Source: Escherichia phage E26. Taken from it: a stretch of 64,000 bases of DNA. Under the pieces are notes generated by a model. That model saw nothing but the letters and a program-made list of their open reading frames with translations. It was not told where the DNA came from and did not search any database. Below are positions 16,061 through 31,065 of this stretch, piece after piece; position 1 is the first letter of the stretch; each line of letters begins with the position of its first letter. A program made the translations under genes and the position numbers. Where the stretch lies: the sequence record MN655998.1. One strand, 5' to 3'.

Positions 16061-16569
16061 TTGATTAAATCATCACATTGTTTGCGTAGTTTATAGCGAT
16101 ACTGTTTTGATTGTAGCAATTGAAGTTTTTCATAATCCCCTTCCTCATATGCAGCCGAAAGATCATCTTGATATGCTGCTTCCGTCCCGATTACACATAC
16201 TCCAAATTTTCTACGACGGTCGGCATCTTCCATTGCTTTGCGATTCATTTCTTCAATTGAATTTTCATGACCATAATAATATTCGTAAATGCGTTTCTTC
16301 TCTGCTTCTTTATCTGCCTTAATCTTTGCGATCTGTTCTGCTGATTCCGGTTGACGACCTAAACGCTGTAATGAGGCGTCTTTCTTTTCAAGGTAGTCAA
16401 TCACGCAATCTTCAACGCTATTAAATGGAAAACGTGACTCTTTCTGCCATCGTTCACATGACCGTACAAACTCGTGTGTATTCTTAGATGCAAGTGCCAG
16501 ATCATGCACAGCGCACCCATTAAGCATAGCCACTAAAGCCGCAAGACCAATCAGTTTAATCATTTTCAT
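16057..16569 (-). CDS. predicted lipoprotein
   Basis: 170 aa; signal peptide MKMIKLIGLAALVAMLNGC with lipobox-like LNGC; ATGA start-stop overlap with upstream Alt-like gene. Confidence 0.6.
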   Translation of the reverse strand: MKMIKLIGLAALVAMLNGCAVHDLALASKNTHEFVRSCERWQKESRFPFNSVEDCVIDYLEKKDASLQRLGRQPESAEQIAKIKADKEAEKKRIYEYYYGHENSIEEMNRKAMEDADRRRKFGVCVIGTEAAYQDDLSAAYEEGDYEKLQLLQSKQYRYKLRKQCDDLIK

Positions 16570-17390
16570 TTAGTCACCTCACCGAAAATTGTAAATTGTC
16601 TACGATTCTCATCACCGAAAGATTCTACTACGTCGTTTACCTTGACGCAAGTCCCGCGCGGTAAAATTACTTCACATTCGCAAGGATTCCATGCAATTGA
16701 CCCAACAACAAAACCTTTATGATCTTTTACGTCAATTACCCACGATACATTACAAGAATGTTGCATCTTTCCGGTCATGGATTCATATCGATTCTCACAA
16801 TAAAGGCTAGTGCTGTTTGATAGCCAGCCTCCAAAGATGATCGGTGTCATGCTGGTTGACACAAAGTTTTTAAAGGTAAATTCCTTATCTTCAATAATAC
16901 GCTCTATTGTCTGAATGTCAAGATGTTGACCGCGATAAAGAGTACCGTTTAACTTTTCGGTTTTATCCATGACGCAATCCATCAAATCAACAATCTCTGA
17001 TATCTCATCGGTCATGTCTTCTTCCCCTAAGAGAGCACCATTTACCCATTCGTATTGTTCAGACACATAATCACAGATTGCATTATATTCTGCTGGGGTT
17101 ATGTTGTTATGTTTGTAATGTTTGAATACATTATCTCCAAAGTCTTCGGAGTGTACTTCATACATCACATTAATGATTTTCTTGACAAATCCATAATCTT
17201 GTGTCTCACGCTCAAGGAAGCGGATAACCTTCACATAATCATCAAAGTTAATCTGATCGCTGATCATCTCAGTGATCATGTAACCATTAATCCCCTCAAT
17301 GTCATATGTTTCGATGTAATTATCCATACGTTCCATCATTGATTCGCGTGATTCTTCTGAAAGACGAAAATCCTGTAATTTCTTGAACAT
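16566..17390 (-). CDS. Alt-like ADP-ribosyltransferase paralog (catalytic domain only)
   Basis: 274 aa; R-S-E ART motifs LYRGQHLD, FVSTS, ECEVILPRG, parallel to those in the adjacent Alt. Confidence 0.7.
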   Translation of the reverse strand: MFKKLQDFRLSEESRESMMERMDNYIETYDIEGINGYMITEMISDQINFDDYVKVIRFLERETQDYGFVKKIINVMYEVHSEDFGDNVFKHYKHNNITPAEYNAICDYVSEQYEWVNGALLGEEDMTDEISEIVDLMDCVMDKTEKLNGTLYRGQHLDIQTIERIIEDKEFTFKNFVSTSMTPIIFGGWLSNSTSLYCENRYESMTGKMQHSCNVSWVIDVKDHKGFVVGSIAWNPCECEVILPRGTCVKVNDVVESFGDENRRQFTIFGEVTK

Positions 17391-17468: not shown

Positions 17469-19520
17469 TTACATTTTAAATTTATCTGGCATTGCGTCTA
17501 CAGATACCAGATCAGCGATAAGCTGACGTAGAGTTGCCTTATCTGCTTTCTTACGTTCGGTTTTAGCTTCGCTAATGAAGCTGGAGAAAGACAGGTCAGA
17601 AGCAGGTTTAACAACACCTTCACGGATGAATGCATCACCGTCCGCGATCATCTCGCCAGATTCTTGTAATGCTGCCAGTTCATTTTTGTTCATAATATGT
17701 GCCTCAATGTAATAAGTTTCTTGTGAATCCGTCGATGCCGTAGCACGAGTTACCGTATCAAAGGATAACACAACACCGCGAGGAAGTAAAATCTCGCATT
17801 CTTTGTAAGCAAATGCTTTGTTACCTACTGGCAAGACAGGGATGTTTTCCGCGCCAGCAATGGAGAAAGCAACATTAGCGCCACCTTCACCGCGAGAGCC
17901 AGCCATAGAATCAACACCAGCAACGGCACTAGCCACGTTTGCATTCCAGCCGCCAAAAATGTTAGGTGCAAGGGAAGTGCTCACATAGTTTTTAAAGTAA
18001 AACGCTTTTTGCTTACGTGCAGTTTCCCACATTTGCGACCGGAAGTCCATACCACGATACAGAATAGTACCCGGATCAAGTTTAACTCCATAGTTGGAGA
18101 AGGCATTATCCAGTGCATCGCACATCTTGACCAATTCTTCTGGATCTGCGATGCCTTCAAACTCTTCCAGCTTACGATCAGTTAGGAAGTTGTTCATATT
18201 GATGTATGCTGCATCGGCATATTCGCTCAATACAAAACCTTCCGCGCCAGGCAGATCAAGATCAATATCTGCCATCATTTCACCCATGTTGCTAGCAATT
18301 GCTTCAAACATACCGGAAGCAACATTACGTAGGGCATCGGTTTTAATCTGTGTGATGTGACTACGCAGCATTTCAGCTTTTACATCTGCTGGCATAGACT
18401 GGTCTACTCGATCCATTGCCAGGGCGGTGATCTTGTTTTCGAATACTTCCTCGCTCATGATTTCTTTTAAGCGTTTGATTGATGCTGCGATAACTTCCGC
18501 AGACAACGGATCATATTGATCCTGAACTTTTACCAGTTCGCTTACTGCGTATTTTGCATCGGCTTCGCTTTCAAAAATAGTACGCATGAAACCATAGCGA
18601 GTGATAATATCACTTGTCCAGTCATTCAGAGAACGGGCGGTTGAACGTTCTAAGGCTTGACGATCAATCAGAGTATTAAACTGTTTCTTAGGTTCGGCTT
18701 CGGTGATATCTTCTTCTGGTTTAAGATTAATTTTTTCTGGATGATTCACGTAGTCGCTGTTATATGTCGCTTGAGTTTTCAGCATTTCTTCTTTAGTCAA
18801 ACGAGATTTAGCCGCTACGCGTTGTTCTGCTTCCGCGTTTCGTTCTTCTTCTGACACAAGACTAGCCGCATATGCCTCATCTTTAGTCAGAGATTCACCA
18901 GTAGCCTTAGATACCCAGCGATCACCTAAATCACTTTCTACTTTAGTGAACAAGGATTCATCAAGTTTAATCCCTTTAATCTTATCAATCGCCATCCCGC
19001 GACGCTTGACAACAACTAAAGCGATCTTTTTGCTGGTCATTACTTCCTGCTGGAATACTTCAAACTTCGGTGTACGACGCACCAAACGCTCTATAACGCG
19101 CTTAACCAGTTCGGTCTTACCTTTCATGCGGGATACGTTAAAACGGAACATAACAGCGTCTAATTGCGCTTTACGGGCTGTTTCCATAACCACATCAAAA
19201 GCACTTGCCATAACTGCAATCGGGTTATCGCCTAGACCATTTTTAAGCTGTACAATACGACCGCTTTTGTTCATTTCGCACAGTACAACATGTGCGGTTT
19301 TGTCACCCATACGAATGATTTTAGGTGTTTTGTTGGTGAAGTTACAAAGACGGACAATCACATCTTTATCGCGTGTCTGTACTGCAAAAAGCTGTTTAGG
19401 ATTCTGCTTAGGCTTTAAGCACTGTACCGGAGCAATACTGCCAAAGTTTTCTTCCTCTTCCGTCAACAGCCATTTCTCGAAAGATTCAATCATTAGATCG
19501 TCGATTTCTAAGTTAAACAT
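17469..19520 (-). CDS. alt: Alt ADP-ribosyltransferase
   Basis: 683 aa; ART motifs LYRGMDF, YVSTSL, ECEILLPRG; size and position as T4 Alt. Confidence 0.85.
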   Translation of the reverse strand: MFNLEIDDLMIESFEKWLLTEEEENFGSIAPVQCLKPKQNPKQLFAVQTRDKDVIVRLCNFTNKTPKIIRMGDKTAHVVLCEMNKSGRIVQLKNGLGDNPIAVMASAFDVVMETARKAQLDAVMFRFNVSRMKGKTELVKRVIERLVRRTPKFEVFQQEVMTSKKIALVVVKRRGMAIDKIKGIKLDESLFTKVESDLGDRWVSKATGESLTKDEAYAASLVSEEERNAEAEQRVAAKSRLTKEEMLKTQATYNSDYVNHPEKINLKPEEDITEAEPKKQFNTLIDRQALERSTARSLNDWTSDIITRYGFMRTIFESEADAKYAVSELVKVQDQYDPLSAEVIAASIKRLKEIMSEEVFENKITALAMDRVDQSMPADVKAEMLRSHITQIKTDALRNVASGMFEAIASNMGEMMADIDLDLPGAEGFVLSEYADAAYINMNNFLTDRKLEEFEGIADPEELVKMCDALDNAFSNYGVKLDPGTILYRGMDFRSQMWETARKQKAFYFKNYVSTSLAPNIFGGWNANVASAVAGVDSMAGSRGEGGANVAFSIAGAENIPVLPVGNKAFAYKECEILLPRGVVLSFDTVTRATASTDSQETYYIEAHIMNKNELAALQESGEMIADGDAFIREGVVKPASDLSFSSFISEAKTERKKADKATLRQLIADLVSVDAMPDKFKM

Positions 19521-20083: not shown

Positions 20084-20112
20084 ATTATAGGGGATCACCG
20101 ATCCCCTGTCAA
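20084..20112 (-). promoter_or_regulatory. PeSL-like early promoter cassette 2
   Basis: TTGACA-GGGGATCGGTGATCCCC-TATAAT; perfect palindromic spacer with two GATC sites. Confidence 0.6.
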
Positions 20113-20676
20113 CAACTTTTTTGAATTATTTTTTAATTGCTCATCTTGTAATAGAGCAATAACATGCTGGCGATGTTCTTCCGATTGAGGCACACCGAAA
20201 AAGTTTGTTTTGTAGAAATATTCTAATCGATCTTCTCGTGTGCTCTCTTCCATCATGATCGCGGGTAGTCCGAGATTTCGGAAACGTCGCTTTTCTGCTG
20301 GCGTAAAATCACTGTAATACAACATAGAATCATCATTACCAGCAATGCTAAACTCATCTTTCATAAAGGAGAATATTGCGTTTAAACGCTGTTTACCGTC
20401 CACGATTTCGATCTCATAGCGAGAGCCATCATCAATCTTAGCCATTGCGATAGCACCAACCGGAAAATCATTAATCAGGTTTTCGATAAACATACGTTTG
20501 TTTTCGGTGTCCCATACCAAAGGACGCTGATAATCTGGGTTCATGTTGATATAGCCATCTTCTAACCACGCCTCATAAACAGAGATGACAAAGTTTTTAG
20601 TATTGGTATAGTAACGGCGTTTAGGCGTTAAACGGTTCATGTTATAGTCTCCTGAATGGATCATCACGTAAATCAA
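20095..20676 (-). CDS. DUF262 (ParB-like / GmrSD N-terminal domain) protein
   Basis: 193 aa; signature motifs PDYQRPLVW and VDGKQRLNAI. Confidence 0.7.
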   Translation of the reverse strand: MIYVMIHSGDYNMNRLTPKRRYYTNTKNFVISVYEAWLEDGYINMNPDYQRPLVWDTENKRMFIENLINDFPVGAIAMAKIDDGSRYEIEIVDGKQRLNAIFSFMKDEFSIAGNDDSMLYYSDFTPAEKRRFRNLGLPAIMMEESTREDRLEYFYKTNFFGVPQSEEHRQHVIALLQDEQLKNNSKKLLTGDR

Positions 20677-27422: not shown

Positions 27423-27896
27423 TTACTCCTTATTTTCGCGCTCGTACTTTTCGAAATAAAATTCTACTGGCTGGTCATTAATTGACAGCAAGCCAAAGCG
27501 TTTAGCCGCTCGCAATCCCATATTGCGCTGAATGTACTTCTGGAAGTTCTCGCGTATACACTTACGCCAGTATTCTAAGCCCATACAGCTTTTATAAAGA
27601 TTGCATTGCACACACGCCGGATTCATGTTATCAAGTATATCATGTTCCGGTTTATGCATTCCTACAACCTTATACTTCCACGATCCATCATCATTACGGG
27701 CAATTCGTCCATTTTCATCATAGACTACCTTTGAGCGTCGCAATACTGGTTTGATGTGGTCTGCGTGCCAGCGATCCCCTAGTTCCTCGCCACAATAGGC
27801 ACAACGTCCACCATATTTCATTTTCAGGATCTGGCGTTGCTCTTTCTTTGACAATTTTTTAGGTTTAGGGGCTTTTGCCCCTTCATTATCACACAT
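27423..27896 (-). CDS. HNH endonuclease (freestanding, homing-endonuclease-like)
   Basis: 157 aa; CAYCGEEL...WHADHIKP HNH core and second Cys pair CVQCN; start overlaps end of ligase gene. Confidence 0.75.
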   Translation of the reverse strand: MCDNEGAKAPKPKKLSKKEQRQILKMKYGGRCAYCGEELGDRWHADHIKPVLRRSKVVYDENGRIARNDDGSWKYKVVGMHKPEHDILDNMNPACVQCNLYKSCMGLEYWRKCIRENFQKYIQRNMGLRAAKRFGLLSINDQPVEFYFEKYERENKE

Positions 27897-29391
27897 CGAA
27901 TACCTCTTTTACTGTATTTGCAGTGGTCTTGTCGTAGCGAATACGTTTGATGATTGGGAGAAATAAAGAGAACTCCGGTTCATCTTCTTTACGTGATTTG
28001 CTGCGGATATACCCGTTGCATGTCATCTCAATGACTTTTCCAATCAGGTTATGACGATCAGCCCATAACATTTCTCGGTCGAGTTCATTTCTACGATCGA
28101 ACGGAATTACACGTTCAATACCATCATCACCTTTTTCGGTTGTAGTGTCGGTTAATCCAGATCCGGTGTTAGTCATCATTCGTCCGCACGCACTACGGAC
28201 AGTAAAACCGCCTACCTTATTGGGGTCTTTACTATGCGGATATACATCAACAATTTCCGCGTCGAAGTCAATCACTTCTTTAAATTTAACCTGATCTTTA
28301 CTACGGCGATCTTCAAATACACCATGTAAATTTTTAAGGATAATACCTTCTAAGCCCATGTTTACATAGCGATGATATACTTCGCGAGCTTCGTCTATAT
28401 TGTTAACTACAGTGTTTTCGATTATCTGAACACGAGGATCGTTAAGTTCTTCAACAATCTGTTTTAGTTCTTCGAATCGATCTTTATATTGCTTCGTTGC
28501 TTTCTCGTTTCCGTAATACACATCACGGTCGATAACATCCCAGACAGTGTAAACAATACATTGGGCTTCTTCTTTTGGAATAGTTCCTTTCAGTGATTTG
28601 TTGAGGATACCATTTCCGGTCTGACGATCTGCAACAACGGATTCTTTTACTGCTTCCGCTACTGGAGTTAATGGCATTTCCTCTTCTTCAAATATCCATG
28701 ACAGAGTACCATCATAAACGCTCTCAACGAAGTTCTGCGCTGGTGTTTGTGAAAGGGTAGGCATATATACCAATTCGCCATCTAGAACAATTCCACGGCC
28801 TCGTAGACGCTCTAAAACCGCAAACAAATCATCAAGCCCTTGATAGGTATTACCTGAGCGGGTATAGATTGCTAATGTTTCCCCGTCAATATCAGCCATA
28901 CCACGAGCGCCATCGCTTTTAAGTTGTGCATACGCCGGATATTTGATATTGGCAATAGTCTTATCAGAACATGACGATGCAAGGTGGCACGGTTGCTGAG
29001 GAATCAGTTTCTTCCATACCTTGTTTGCAGTGGTAGCGGAACAGCCGCATTCCAGATCACGATTCAGGACCATCATCGCAACTTTAGCATCATCCTCTGA
29101 CAAGCAAGTCAGAGTATCGGTAACTAGCTGTAATGCTGCATTACCAGTTACTTGACGCGTGGCAAGTTTATTTTTAAAGACCTGTAATGCACCGGATAAA
29201 GACAATACAGACGAATAGCGAGATGGTTTATCGTATTTCTTTACGCCAAACGTAACCTGTTTGCAATATGCCAGATAAAAGCATTCTTTCAGCGTTTCAT
29301 TGCTCGCGGATTCTTTCAGGATCTTTTCTTTCAGCGATGTTTTGTCGGTTGCTGCAAGCTGATTAATGATATTAAGAATTGACATTTTCAC
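27889..29391 (-). CDS. 30: ATP-dependent DNA ligase gp30
   Basis: 500 aa; KADGAR adenylation motif, DGELV, EGIILK, near-colinear with T4 DNA ligase. Confidence 0.92.
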   Translation of the reverse strand: MKMSILNIINQLAATDKTSLKEKILKESASNETLKECFYLAYCKQVTFGVKKYDKPSRYSSVLSLSGALQVFKNKLATRQVTGNAALQLVTDTLTCLSEDDAKVAMMVLNRDLECGCSATTANKVWKKLIPQQPCHLASSCSDKTIANIKYPAYAQLKSDGARGMADIDGETLAIYTRSGNTYQGLDDLFAVLERLRGRGIVLDGELVYMPTLSQTPAQNFVESVYDGTLSWIFEEEEMPLTPVAEAVKESVVADRQTGNGILNKSLKGTIPKEEAQCIVYTVWDVIDRDVYYGNEKATKQYKDRFEELKQIVEELNDPRVQIIENTVVNNIDEAREVYHRYVNMGLEGIILKNLHGVFEDRRSKDQVKFKEVIDFDAEIVDVYPHSKDPNKVGGFTVRSACGRMMTNTGSGLTDTTTEKGDDGIERVIPFDRRNELDREMLWADRHNLIGKVIEMTCNGYIRSKSRKEDEPEFSLFLPIIKRIRYDKTTANTVKEVFDV

Positions 29392-29851
29392 CTCGTTTTG
29401 TTAAACGTTCACGAATATCATTGAGGATACTACAAAATTCCGATTCAGTCAATATAGTCTTTAACGGATCAGTTCCACCTATACTATGACGTAATTTCTT
29501 ATTTCCGGTCGAGAGTAATGCTTTACAAAATTCTGGGTTATTCCGTGCCATCGTAACAAATGCCAGATGTACCAGTCTGTAATAATGCTCACTCATTCGA
29601 TGAATCGGGCGACCCTGAAAATATAACATGTGATTCTCAATCTTTTCAGTTCTTCCGGTTCTTTTTGCTTTGCCACCATGCATCAAAAAGATTTCTCTTT
29701 GTCTCTGAGGGTTCTTAAATCTTAGCCCCTGTAAAAATCCTTCTGTGCTGTTAATATCGCAACCAAATAGACGGAATGGTCTTTTATTGAAATTACTCAA
29801 TTCACCAGATGGATAAGGTCCACCCGCATAGATATCAATTTCAGAAGTCAT
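29372..29851 (-). CDS. NADAR / YbiA-like (DUF1768) protein
   Basis: 159 aa; N-terminal GELSNF...PF...EGFLQGLRF pattern typical of YbiA/NADAR. Confidence 0.55.
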   Translation of the reverse strand: MTSEIDIYAGGPYPSGELSNFNKRPFRLFGCDINSTEGFLQGLRFKNPQRQREIFLMHGGKAKRTGRTEKIENHMLYFQGRPIHRMSEHYYRLVHLAFVTMARNNPEFCKALLSTGNKKLRHSIGGTDPLKTILTESEFCSILNDIRERLTKRGENVNS

Positions 29852-30005
29852 TGAAACTAATCTCGCTAATCAGAGAGAACGGATCATAATCGTCATGAGG
29901 AATATCGACAGTAATCGAATGAGGATTTACCCATACACCAAACTGGTCTTCTTCGGTGAATACTTCGGTATGGATTTCGTGGATGTTTACATTCATAGTT
30001 TTCAT
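29841..30005 (-). CDS. small hypothetical protein (54 aa)
   Basis: Manual translation MKTMNVNIHEIHTEVFTEEDQFGVWVNPHS...; SD AAGGAA; overlaps next gene by 11 nt. Confidence 0.4.
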   Translation of the reverse strand: MKTMNVNIHEIHTEVFTEEDQFGVWVNPHSITVDIPHDDYDPFSLISEISFNDF

Positions 30006-30087
30006 AATAAAATTCCTTAATAATCAATAACTTACAAAATCATATAGCCAAAATATAGGCGGGATTATTTCCCGCCGTTTAAAATCA

Positions 30088-30447: not shown

Positions 30448-31065
30448 TTATTTATATTTCGCGACCTTTGGATTTCTCCGCAGACCGGAATGTATTTGCG
30501 CTATACAACAATAAGAAACATTAAACATATCAGCTATAATTTGCTTCTTAACTTTTCCTTTAAGCCGCATTATTTCTTCGACTTGCGCATTTGTCAGTTT
30601 TGCCCGTGAGTGGTTTTCACCGACATTGTTATTGAGTCCAGTTCTAAATGAATGTCTCATATTTTCTAGTAAGGTTACTATTTCTAGATTCCACACATAA
30701 TTGCAGGTTTTTACACCATTGATGTGATTAACCTCAAGTCCGGTAACGTCTCCTAGAAATGCATTTGCTACAAGTCGATGTATCTTTTCGGCTTTAACTG
30801 AGATTTTACCATTGTCTTTTTGTTTTGACAATGTTGAATAATAATATCCATATCGGTCTAAAATTGGTTTTATTATTTTACCAGCACGTTTTTGTTTTAC
30901 GAGCTTAATATTACCGGGAGAAACTTCTCTATAAAATTCGATACTTCGGTCAATAGATCTCAATCTACCATAATTAGAGATTTCATACCACGGATAACCT
31001 ACAGCTTGTCTCCATTCTTCCGGCGCTGGTAATACGATATTATCATCTTTTGTTTCCATTGTCAA
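30448..31065 (-). CDS. HNH homing endonuclease with NUMOD4-like N-terminus
   Basis: 205 aa; WYEISNYGRLRS (NUMOD4-like) and HRLVANAF...EVNHINGVKTCNYVWNLE (HNH_3). Confidence 0.75.
   Translation of the reverse strand: MTMETKDDNIVLPAPEEWRQAVGYPWYEISNYGRLRSIDRSIEFYREVSPGNIKLVKQKRAGKIIKPILDRYGYYYSTLSKQKDNGKISVKAEKIHRLVANAFLGDVTGLEVNHINGVKTCNYVWNLEIVTLLENMRHSFRTGLNNNVGENHSRAKLTNAQVEEIMRLKGKVKKQIIADMFNVSYCCIAQIHSGLRRNPKVAKYK

Follow-up and report, generated by a model that had tools for sequence, protein, structure and literature searches.

The 159-codon open reading frame immediately upstream of the DNA ligase gene in Escherichia phage E26 is, judged by its sequence, the form that T4 gene 30.3 (adfN) takes in Krischvirus, an orthologue encoding a phage NADAR of the T4 type. 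Its product most likely strips ADP-ribose from guanines of the phage DNA, allowing the phage to escape DarTG1-type defence. A preliminary description of the window (the whole 64,000-nucleotide stretch of DNA that was analysed) had proposed a NADAR/YbiA-fold protein acting in counter-defence against DNA ADP-ribosylating toxins. This core claim is supported: the function has been shown experimentally for T4 gp30.3/AdfN (PMC11825919; PMC11125620; HIDEN-SEQ preprint), and orthology, fold and profile homology back it here. Our own basis is homology together with the fold, the conservation of key residues, purifying selection and the arrangement of the genes, while enzymatic activity and anti-DarTG1 function are established for the T4 protein only. 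The observation holds but is not new, the function of the T4 orthologue having been published in 2024-25. The sole new element that we see in the sequence is a natural lysine-to-arginine change at a catalytic position.

Identity and family membership

The listing of open reading frames in the window gives a minus-strand frame with an ATG start (Table 1), and its translation contains the GELSNF, PF and EGFLQGLRF pattern quoted in the preliminary description, as G16-ELSNF21, P25-F26 and E37-GFLQGLRF45. Over the surrounding 3.3 kb, 59 E. coli phages of the RB49-like genus Krischvirus are 97-99% identical to the window. The same 480-nt CDS is annotated as gene 30.3 in the reference record of RB49, whose copy differs from that of the window at five nucleotides and one residue. 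BLASTP aligned the product with T4 gp30.3 from end to end (38% identity, E=6e-30).

Table 1. Features in and around gene 30.3, in window coordinates
Feature	Position	Strand	Remarks
ART-domain protein, 274 aa	16566..17390		
Alt homologue, 683 aa, ADP-ribosyltransferase domain	17469..19520		
Gene 30, ATP-dependent DNA ligase, downstream neighbour	27889..29385	-	PF01068 E=2.8e-22; 41% identical to T4 ligase, E=7e-113
Overlap of 14 nt, end of 30.3 and start of ligase	29372..29385	-	Stop TAA 29372-29374; ligase ATG 29383-29385
Gene 30.3 (adfN orthologue)	29372..29851	-	159-aa single-domain phage-type NADAR, predicted DNA guanine-ADP-ribose glycohydrolase
C-terminal alpha-helix, residues 136-157	29378..29446	-	DSSP of structure model; BLASTP alignment reaches last T4 gp30.3 residue
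Codon CAT, H122, last-strand histidine marking phage gp30.3-type NADARs	29486..29488	-	Equivalent to T4 H123, YbiA E125 (hhalign)
Codon AGA, R44, at the phosphate-coordinating catalytic lysine position	29720..29722	-	Equivalent to T4 K43, C7 K95, Phytophthora K50, YbiA K55
Codon GAA, E37, catalytic glutamate	29741..29743	-	Equivalent to T4 E36, E. coli C7 NADAR E88, Phytophthora NADAR E43, YbiA E48 (alignments)
Upstream ORF, 54 aa, function unassigned	29841..30005	-	PHROG 15277 E=1.6e-41; AAGGA Shine-Dalgarno
Terminator-like GC-rich hairpin and T-run, between gene 31 and 54-aa ORF	30058..30076	-	Consensus match only; site number not above shuffled controls

The HMM search suggested as a check on the NADAR assignment gave a divided answer. 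The product matched Pfam PF08010 (Phage_30_3) with 130.1 bits against a gathering cutoff of 36 (E=6.5e-38), in an alignment spanning profile positions 2-138 of 138, and PHROG 652 was matched at E=9e-45. In contrast, the Pfam NADAR model PF08719 scored 15.6 bits and stayed below its cutoff of 35.1 (E=0.02). Missing this threshold does not exclude the NADAR superfamily, because Pfam keeps the phage group as a family of its own. The preliminary description had named the lack of a NADAR profile match, or of the catalytic residues, as grounds for refutation; taken literally the outcome is borderline, with the Pfam NADAR score sub-threshold and one catalytic residue altered from Lys to Arg (R44).

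Towards E. coli YbiA a plain HMM search was merely marginal (E=0.028), whereas hhalign of a 138-sequence non-redundant family profile against YbiA gave a probability of 94.7% over 109 columns (E=6.3e-8). The product also has the YbiA fold, a helical core with flanking small sheets, and its membership of the NADAR superfamily is well supported. Family matches were found by tblastn in 1509 phage records, mostly of Straboviridae and from many host genera, and an exhaustive profile search returned 1631 cluster representatives. The NCBIfam search of the product yielded only a weak hit to NF053876 (14.3 bits, cutoff 240), and no PADLOC model matched it. Two further candidates were set aside. The ligase DltA, picked up by single-sequence phmmer against the PDB (E=7e-4), is spurious, as neither the fold nor the profile search agrees. 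Deoxyribonucleotidase structures were matched by the profile from one alignment in which a fused NT5C domain dominates, a match that speaks to the fusions only.

Within the superfamily the protein is not classed with the YbiA family, and the earlier label 'YbiA-like' was dropped: the last-strand column that carries the conserved YbiA glutamate holds His122, and Arg44 stands where YbiA (PDB 2b3w) has its lysine. E. coli YbiA is itself a housekeeping N-glycosidase encoded in a LexA-controlled operon (PMC11125620; annotation). Nor is the product classed with the DarG1 antitoxins of E. coli C7 and Geobacter lovleyi (PDB 8bat), which have an N-terminal extension, an aspartate in the last strand and a toxin gene next door. 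The window protein is instead a bare core domain of 159 residues, aligned from residue 3, with histidine in place of the aspartate and with no toxin or other ART gene adjoining it. The published types are told apart by this last-strand residue in the same manner: His marks phage NADARs, Glu the YbiA family and Asp the DarG1 type (PMC11825919; PMC11125620; PMC12945103).

Relation to T4 AdfN and proposed mechanism

T4 gene 30.3 has been renamed adfN (anti-DarT factor NADAR). The gene is both required and sufficient for T-even phages to resist DarTG1; its protein, once purified, takes ADP-ribose off DarT1-modified DNA, and the mutants E36A and K43A are impaired (PMC11825919). T4 AdfN has no effect on DarTG2, and its full activity requires an additional T-even factor (PMC11825919). 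Hydrolysis of guanosine-ADPr by T4 gp30.3 in vitro has been reported independently (PMC11125620; PMC12945103), and in a transposon screen 30.3/adfN was dispensable on K-12 and indispensable in the presence of DarTG1 (HIDEN-SEQ preprint). A literature search for Krischvirus or RB49 in connection with DarT returned nothing relevant.

The window protein is a full-length, single-domain orthologue of T4 AdfN that shares its glutamate, its phage-type histidine and an intact C-terminal helix, and its gene occupies the same general genome region between genes 31 and 30. It differs in carrying Arg for T4 K43 and in a C-terminus that is seven residues longer, and the internal 30.3' ORF of T4 has no counterpart in the window. 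[quoted passage not shown] AdfA (T4 gp61.2) and the macrodomain protein AdfM (T4 Tk.4) share the purpose of DarTG escape but are unrelated proteins, AdfM targeting the thymidine-ADPr made by DarTG2 (HIDEN-SEQ preprint). We did not detect AdfA in the window or in RB49 at 1-50 kb, the 50-121 kb portion of RB49 having been examined in part, and the syntenic RB49 genes dc1 and dc2 have no similarity to it. The RB49 annotation lists an orthologue of tk.4 (AdfM), which lies beyond the region studied.

In the mechanism that we propose, gp30.3 would act as a minimal, single-domain N-glycosidase of the NADAR fold. In a DarTG1 host, the toxin DarT1 ADP-ribosylates guanine in phage DNA at the N2 position, and replication is blocked; the phage enzyme would then bind the ADP-ribose and hydrolyse the ribose-guanine bond, restoring normal DNA. 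R44 would coordinate the pyrophosphate, in the place that Lys takes in other family members, with E37 and H122 flanking the distal ribose. This explanation as a whole, a Krischvirus AdfN orthologue working as a DNA guanine-ADPr N-glycosidase against DarTG1, is one that we hold with fairly good confidence. That the RB49-type protein, in which Arg takes the place of the catalytic Lys, functions as T4 AdfN does is inferred.

Catalytic positions and the lysine-to-arginine change

Two of the three diagnostic positions are conventional. Glutamate occupies the E37 column in 269 of 273 family sequences, and the last-strand column is histidine in 264 of the 273. At the catalytic lysine column the same set contains K in 265 sequences, R in six and T in one, and here the window protein has R44. 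The arginine is shared by the window protein, by the cluster 98% identical to it and by one 68%-identical relative; it recurs in three further sequences that are just 31-44% identical to the window protein. R44 lies seven residues beyond the catalytic Glu, the spacing seen in every characterized NADAR, and all remaining near-invariant positions of the family are kept. In place of the lysine of T4 AdfN the protein presents a residue that is still basic, with the charge retained.

Arginine at this position has a precedent. The K95R variant of the E. coli C7 NADAR hydrolyses guanine-ADPr in vitro, yet does not rescue cells from DarT1 in vivo. Because this exchange leaves activity in vitro while failing in vivo, R44 may lower the efficiency of the phage enzyme in vivo or shift its specificity. 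In a solved complex the residue at the lysine position touches the pyrophosphate and the adenine of ADP-ribose and not the modified base. R44 makes it less certain that the protein is fully equivalent to T4 AdfN in function and leaves the homology untouched; it is the sole real uncertainty about the function of the 30.3 product. The C-terminal helix is intact in both the alignment and the model. For comparison, the RB69 allele of gp30.3 is missing its last 15 residues, and with them the corresponding helix, and has reduced activity (PMC11825919).

Gene layout

According to the preliminary description the frame overlaps the ligase gene at its 3' end, but this is the wrong end. Both genes are on the minus strand, with 30.3 upstream, and it is the ligase start that the last 14 nt of 30.3 overlap. 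The ligase Shine-Dalgarno sequence GAGG (29391-29394) is located within 30.3. An alternative GTG start for the ligase at 29391, listed by the ORF finder, would extend the overlap to 20 nt. At its other end, the start codon of 30.3 is overlapped by the last 11 nt of the upstream 54-aa ORF. Both overlaps are kept unchanged in RB49 and in the 68%-identical relative (L006).

Gene 30.3 stands in a dense minus-strand series of overlapping genes of the early region, made up of the 54-aa ORF, 30.3, the ligase gene and an HNH gene. Its translation is probably coupled to that of the 54-aa ORF, and the ligase start lies inside its own 3' end. Translational coupling of 30.3 with the ligase is plausible from the layout, because of the tight gene overlaps. 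The hairpin listed in Table 1 may delimit a transcription unit 54aa-30.3-30-HNH. Inspection of the sequence between this hairpin and the 54-aa ORF revealed no clear promoter, and sigma-70 promoter-like sites were not enriched (13, against 11.9 expected in shuffled sequence).

These tight overlaps indicate gene packing and not a functional tie to the ligase. When the neighbourhoods of other phage genera were compared, adjacency of 30.3 and the ligase gene proved to be specific to Krischvirus and not kept across the family; therefore no functional tie is implied, and the ligase gene is a neighbour only, with no part in NADAR function. In T4, 30.2 and 30.1 separate 30.3 from the ligase gene, whereas in the window the two genes overlap directly since 30.1 and 30.2 are absent; homologues of T4 30.1, 30.2 and 30.4 were not found in the window. 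An Acinetobacter phage has 30.2 in between, the tRNA region houses 30.3 in Edwardsiella phage PEi20, and the gene overlaps one for a deoxyribonucleotidase in Vibrio phage VH7D.

Alternative functions

The readings that turn on R44 concern how well, or on what, the enzyme works. Krischvirus has fixed a Lys-to-Arg change that uncouples in vitro activity from DarT1 rescue in a bacterial antitoxin, and for this reason the RB49-type enzyme might be a functionally distinct AdfN variant, either ineffective against canonical DarTG1, leaving the phages sensitive, or retuned to another ADP-ribosylating defence; we regard this as unlikely. A narrower version, which we find improbable, retains the fold and the chemistry and has R44 tuned to an ADP-ribosylated nucleic acid other than the one that E. 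coli C7 DarT1 canonically makes; guanosine-ADPr in RNA, cytidine-ADPr, or what a DarT1 variant or a different guanine-directed toxin produces would be examples. The rarity of R44 and its stability across a clade diverged to 68% identity suggest selection over tolerated damage, NADARs of several families act on RNA G-ADPr too and some on C-ADPr (PMC12945103), and C7 K95R splits activity in vitro from rescue in vivo. Base specificity is unlikely to hinge on R44, however, since exchanging Lys for Arg keeps a basic side chain and this position contacts pyrophosphate and adenine, and His-type phage NADARs, like those of the Asp type, are described as guanosine-only (PMC12945103). The altered catalytic residue could also mark a decaying or crippled copy, retained merely because its 3' end bears the ribosome-binding site and start codon of the ligase, both of which do lie within the frame. 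That constraint would cover just the last ~25 nt, whereas dN/dS for the whole gene was ~0.11 in comparison with L006, close to the values for ligase (0.12) and dCMP deaminase (0.08), all of them approximate as dS is saturated in this 68%-identity comparison. The length of 159 aa is unchanged in the same relative, and with the other near-invariant positions kept there is scarcely any room for decay; by these sequence measures the gene is maintained.

Two other readings leave R44 aside and change the substrate altogether. The protein might be an N-glycosidase of nucleotide pools or metabolites, engaged in YbiA-like 'damage control' alongside enzymes of nucleotide metabolism and not acting on polymeric DNA. 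E. coli YbiA is annotated as acting on riboflavin intermediates as an N-glycosidase, many Bacteroidales proteins join a gp30.3-type domain to 5'(3')-deoxyribonucleotidase, the gene that 30.3 overlaps in VH7D encodes such a 5'(3')-deoxyribonucleotidase, and in the window the surroundings of 30.3 include genes for enzymes that work on nucleotides and nucleic acids (cd, pseT, ligase). Fusion or adjacency of this kind hints that part of the gp30.3 family acts on nucleotides, not DNA. For the window protein we consider it very unlikely: histidine replaces the glutamate of the YbiA family, the neighbourhood of 30.3 varies among phage genera, and the sole known phenotype of the T4 orthologue, which acts on DNA, is specific to DarTG1 (PMC11825919; HIDEN-SEQ preprint). 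The preliminary description had also offered a role in ADP-ribosylation homeostasis, pointing to the phage's own Alt-type transferases. In such a role 30.3 would remove off-target ADP-ribose left by Alt-like or ModB enzymes. The description rightly counted two ADP-ribosyltransferases in the window, both of which we found (Table 1); they lie 10-13 kb from 30.3, RB49 also has modB, and an Alt gene is near the ligase gene and 30.3 in T4 and in one Acinetobacter phage. The T4 and RB49 records nevertheless state that Alt, ModA and ModB modify proteins (RNA polymerase, S1, EF-Tu), while all reported NADAR activities are on nucleic-acid bases (PMC11125620; PMC12945103); a test of NADAR action on arginine-ADP-ribose was not found in the paper searched. 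We found no support for the homeostasis proposal, as T4 can do without 30.3 on plain K-12 and requires it only with DarTG1, 30.3 mutants growing normally otherwise (PMC11825919; HIDEN-SEQ preprint). A self-homeostasis role is unlikely, and we give it hardly any weight.

Relevance for phage annotation and use

Should the arginine change how efficiently the Krischvirus enzyme acts, or on which substrate, this would bear on the choice of phages against E. coli carrying DarTG1. RB49 gene 30.3 has been annotated since publication of the genome, and the NADAR affiliation appeared in papers of 2023-24. About 1,500 phage records with the gene, in most of which it is entered as 'hypothetical protein', could take the label AdfN-like. 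The annotation of an Acinetobacter phage record already reads 'Member of NADAR superfamily'.

Phage-type NADARs and deoxyribonucleotidases

The closest non-phage homologues of 30.3, the AdfN orthologue, are in the majority NADAR-NT5C fusions of ~322 aa from gut Bacteroidales (P0009-P0123; loci L010-L012), in which a gp30.3-type NADAR domain forms the N-terminal part and a 5'(3')-deoxyribonucleotidase (PF06941) the C-terminal part. In Vibrio phage VH7D a separate 5'(3')-deoxyribonucleotidase-type gene overlaps 30.3 by 14 nt (L008:3007-3958). Because the two are fused in one lineage and adjoin in another, the arrangement suggests that the gp30.3-type NADAR clade is functionally tied to deoxynucleotide dephosphorylation.

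The Bacteroidales fusion gene lies within a conserved gene cluster (L010, L011 and L012; see table) that includes SIR2 and an ARH-type ADP-ribosylglycohydrolase, on contigs of up to 2.59 Mb. Therefore the 'phage' NADARs with a His in the last strand are chromosomal too, and are found inside an NAD/ADP-ribose-themed operon.

Anti-DarT factors

The macrodomain protein encoded by T4 tk.4, lately named AdfM, acts against DarTG2 (HIDEN-SEQ preprint). RB49 possesses a tk.4 orthologue (L014:40-495), but the place of T4 adfA (61.2) is occupied by dc1 and dc2 (L005:11585-12628), which are unrelated to adfA. Accordingly, the anti-DarT set of Krischvirus appears to consist of AdfM and the AdfN carrying Arg at the position of the catalytic Lys (R44), without AdfA.

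One in vitro result for T4 gp30.3 was reported for a 'NADAR (gp30.3)' construct given as residues 1-208 (Toxins 2024, PMC11125620), whereas annotated T4 gp30.3 comprises 152 aa (L001:6308-6766), a mismatch that bears on how far this result can be relied on. The length of T4 gp61.2/AdfA is 208 aa (L003:7133-7759). The published range may be a typographical slip.

Genes surrounding 30.3

Four genes overlap in succession: a conserved 54-aa ORF, 30.3, ligase and an HNH endonuclease ORF. The position of the 54-aa ORF and its overlap with 30.3 are unchanged in a relative where the identity of the ORF is only 48%. Since full activity of T4 AdfN requires an additional phage cofactor (PMC11825919), this small, probably co-translated neighbour is a candidate AdfN cofactor. 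The HNH ORF follows ligase directly, sharing 8 nt with the 3' end of the ligase gene, and RB49 carries this ORF too.

Features in the window and in the Bacteroidales cluster
Feature	Coordinates	Strand	Domain or match
274-aa protein, similar only to Alt catalytic region	16566-17390	-	PF03496
Alt homologue, full-length	17469-19520	-	PF03496; 27% identity to T4 Alt, E=2e-58
193-aa ORF, TTG start	20095-20676	-	GmrSD N-terminal (DUF262) domain, PF03235, E=3.4e-20
157-aa HNH endonuclease ORF	27423-27896	-	PF01844
Conserved 54-aa ORF, overlaps 30.3 start	29841-30005	-	PHROG 15277, E=1.6e-41
205-aa homing-endonuclease ORF	30448-31065	-	NUMOD4 + HNH_3
Bacteroidales cluster, in order: SIR2, three small uncharacterised ORFs, ARH-type ADP-ribosylglycohydrolase, fusion gene, 223-aa uncharacterised ORF	L010:2846-7661		PF03747 (ARH)

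Elsewhere in the window, the two ORFs with an ADP-ribosyltransferase domain form a tandem pair, and the ORF with the GmrSD N-terminal domain is found just upstream of these Alt-like genes. The usual home of this domain is in restriction enzymes directed against modified DNA.

The homing-endonuclease ORF is placed between genes 31 and 31.1 and appears to be a mobile insertion whose presence is polymorphic in the genus. It is spanned by only ~11 of 59 related phage records, and it is missing from both RB49 and the diverged relative L006, where homology ends at ~30434.
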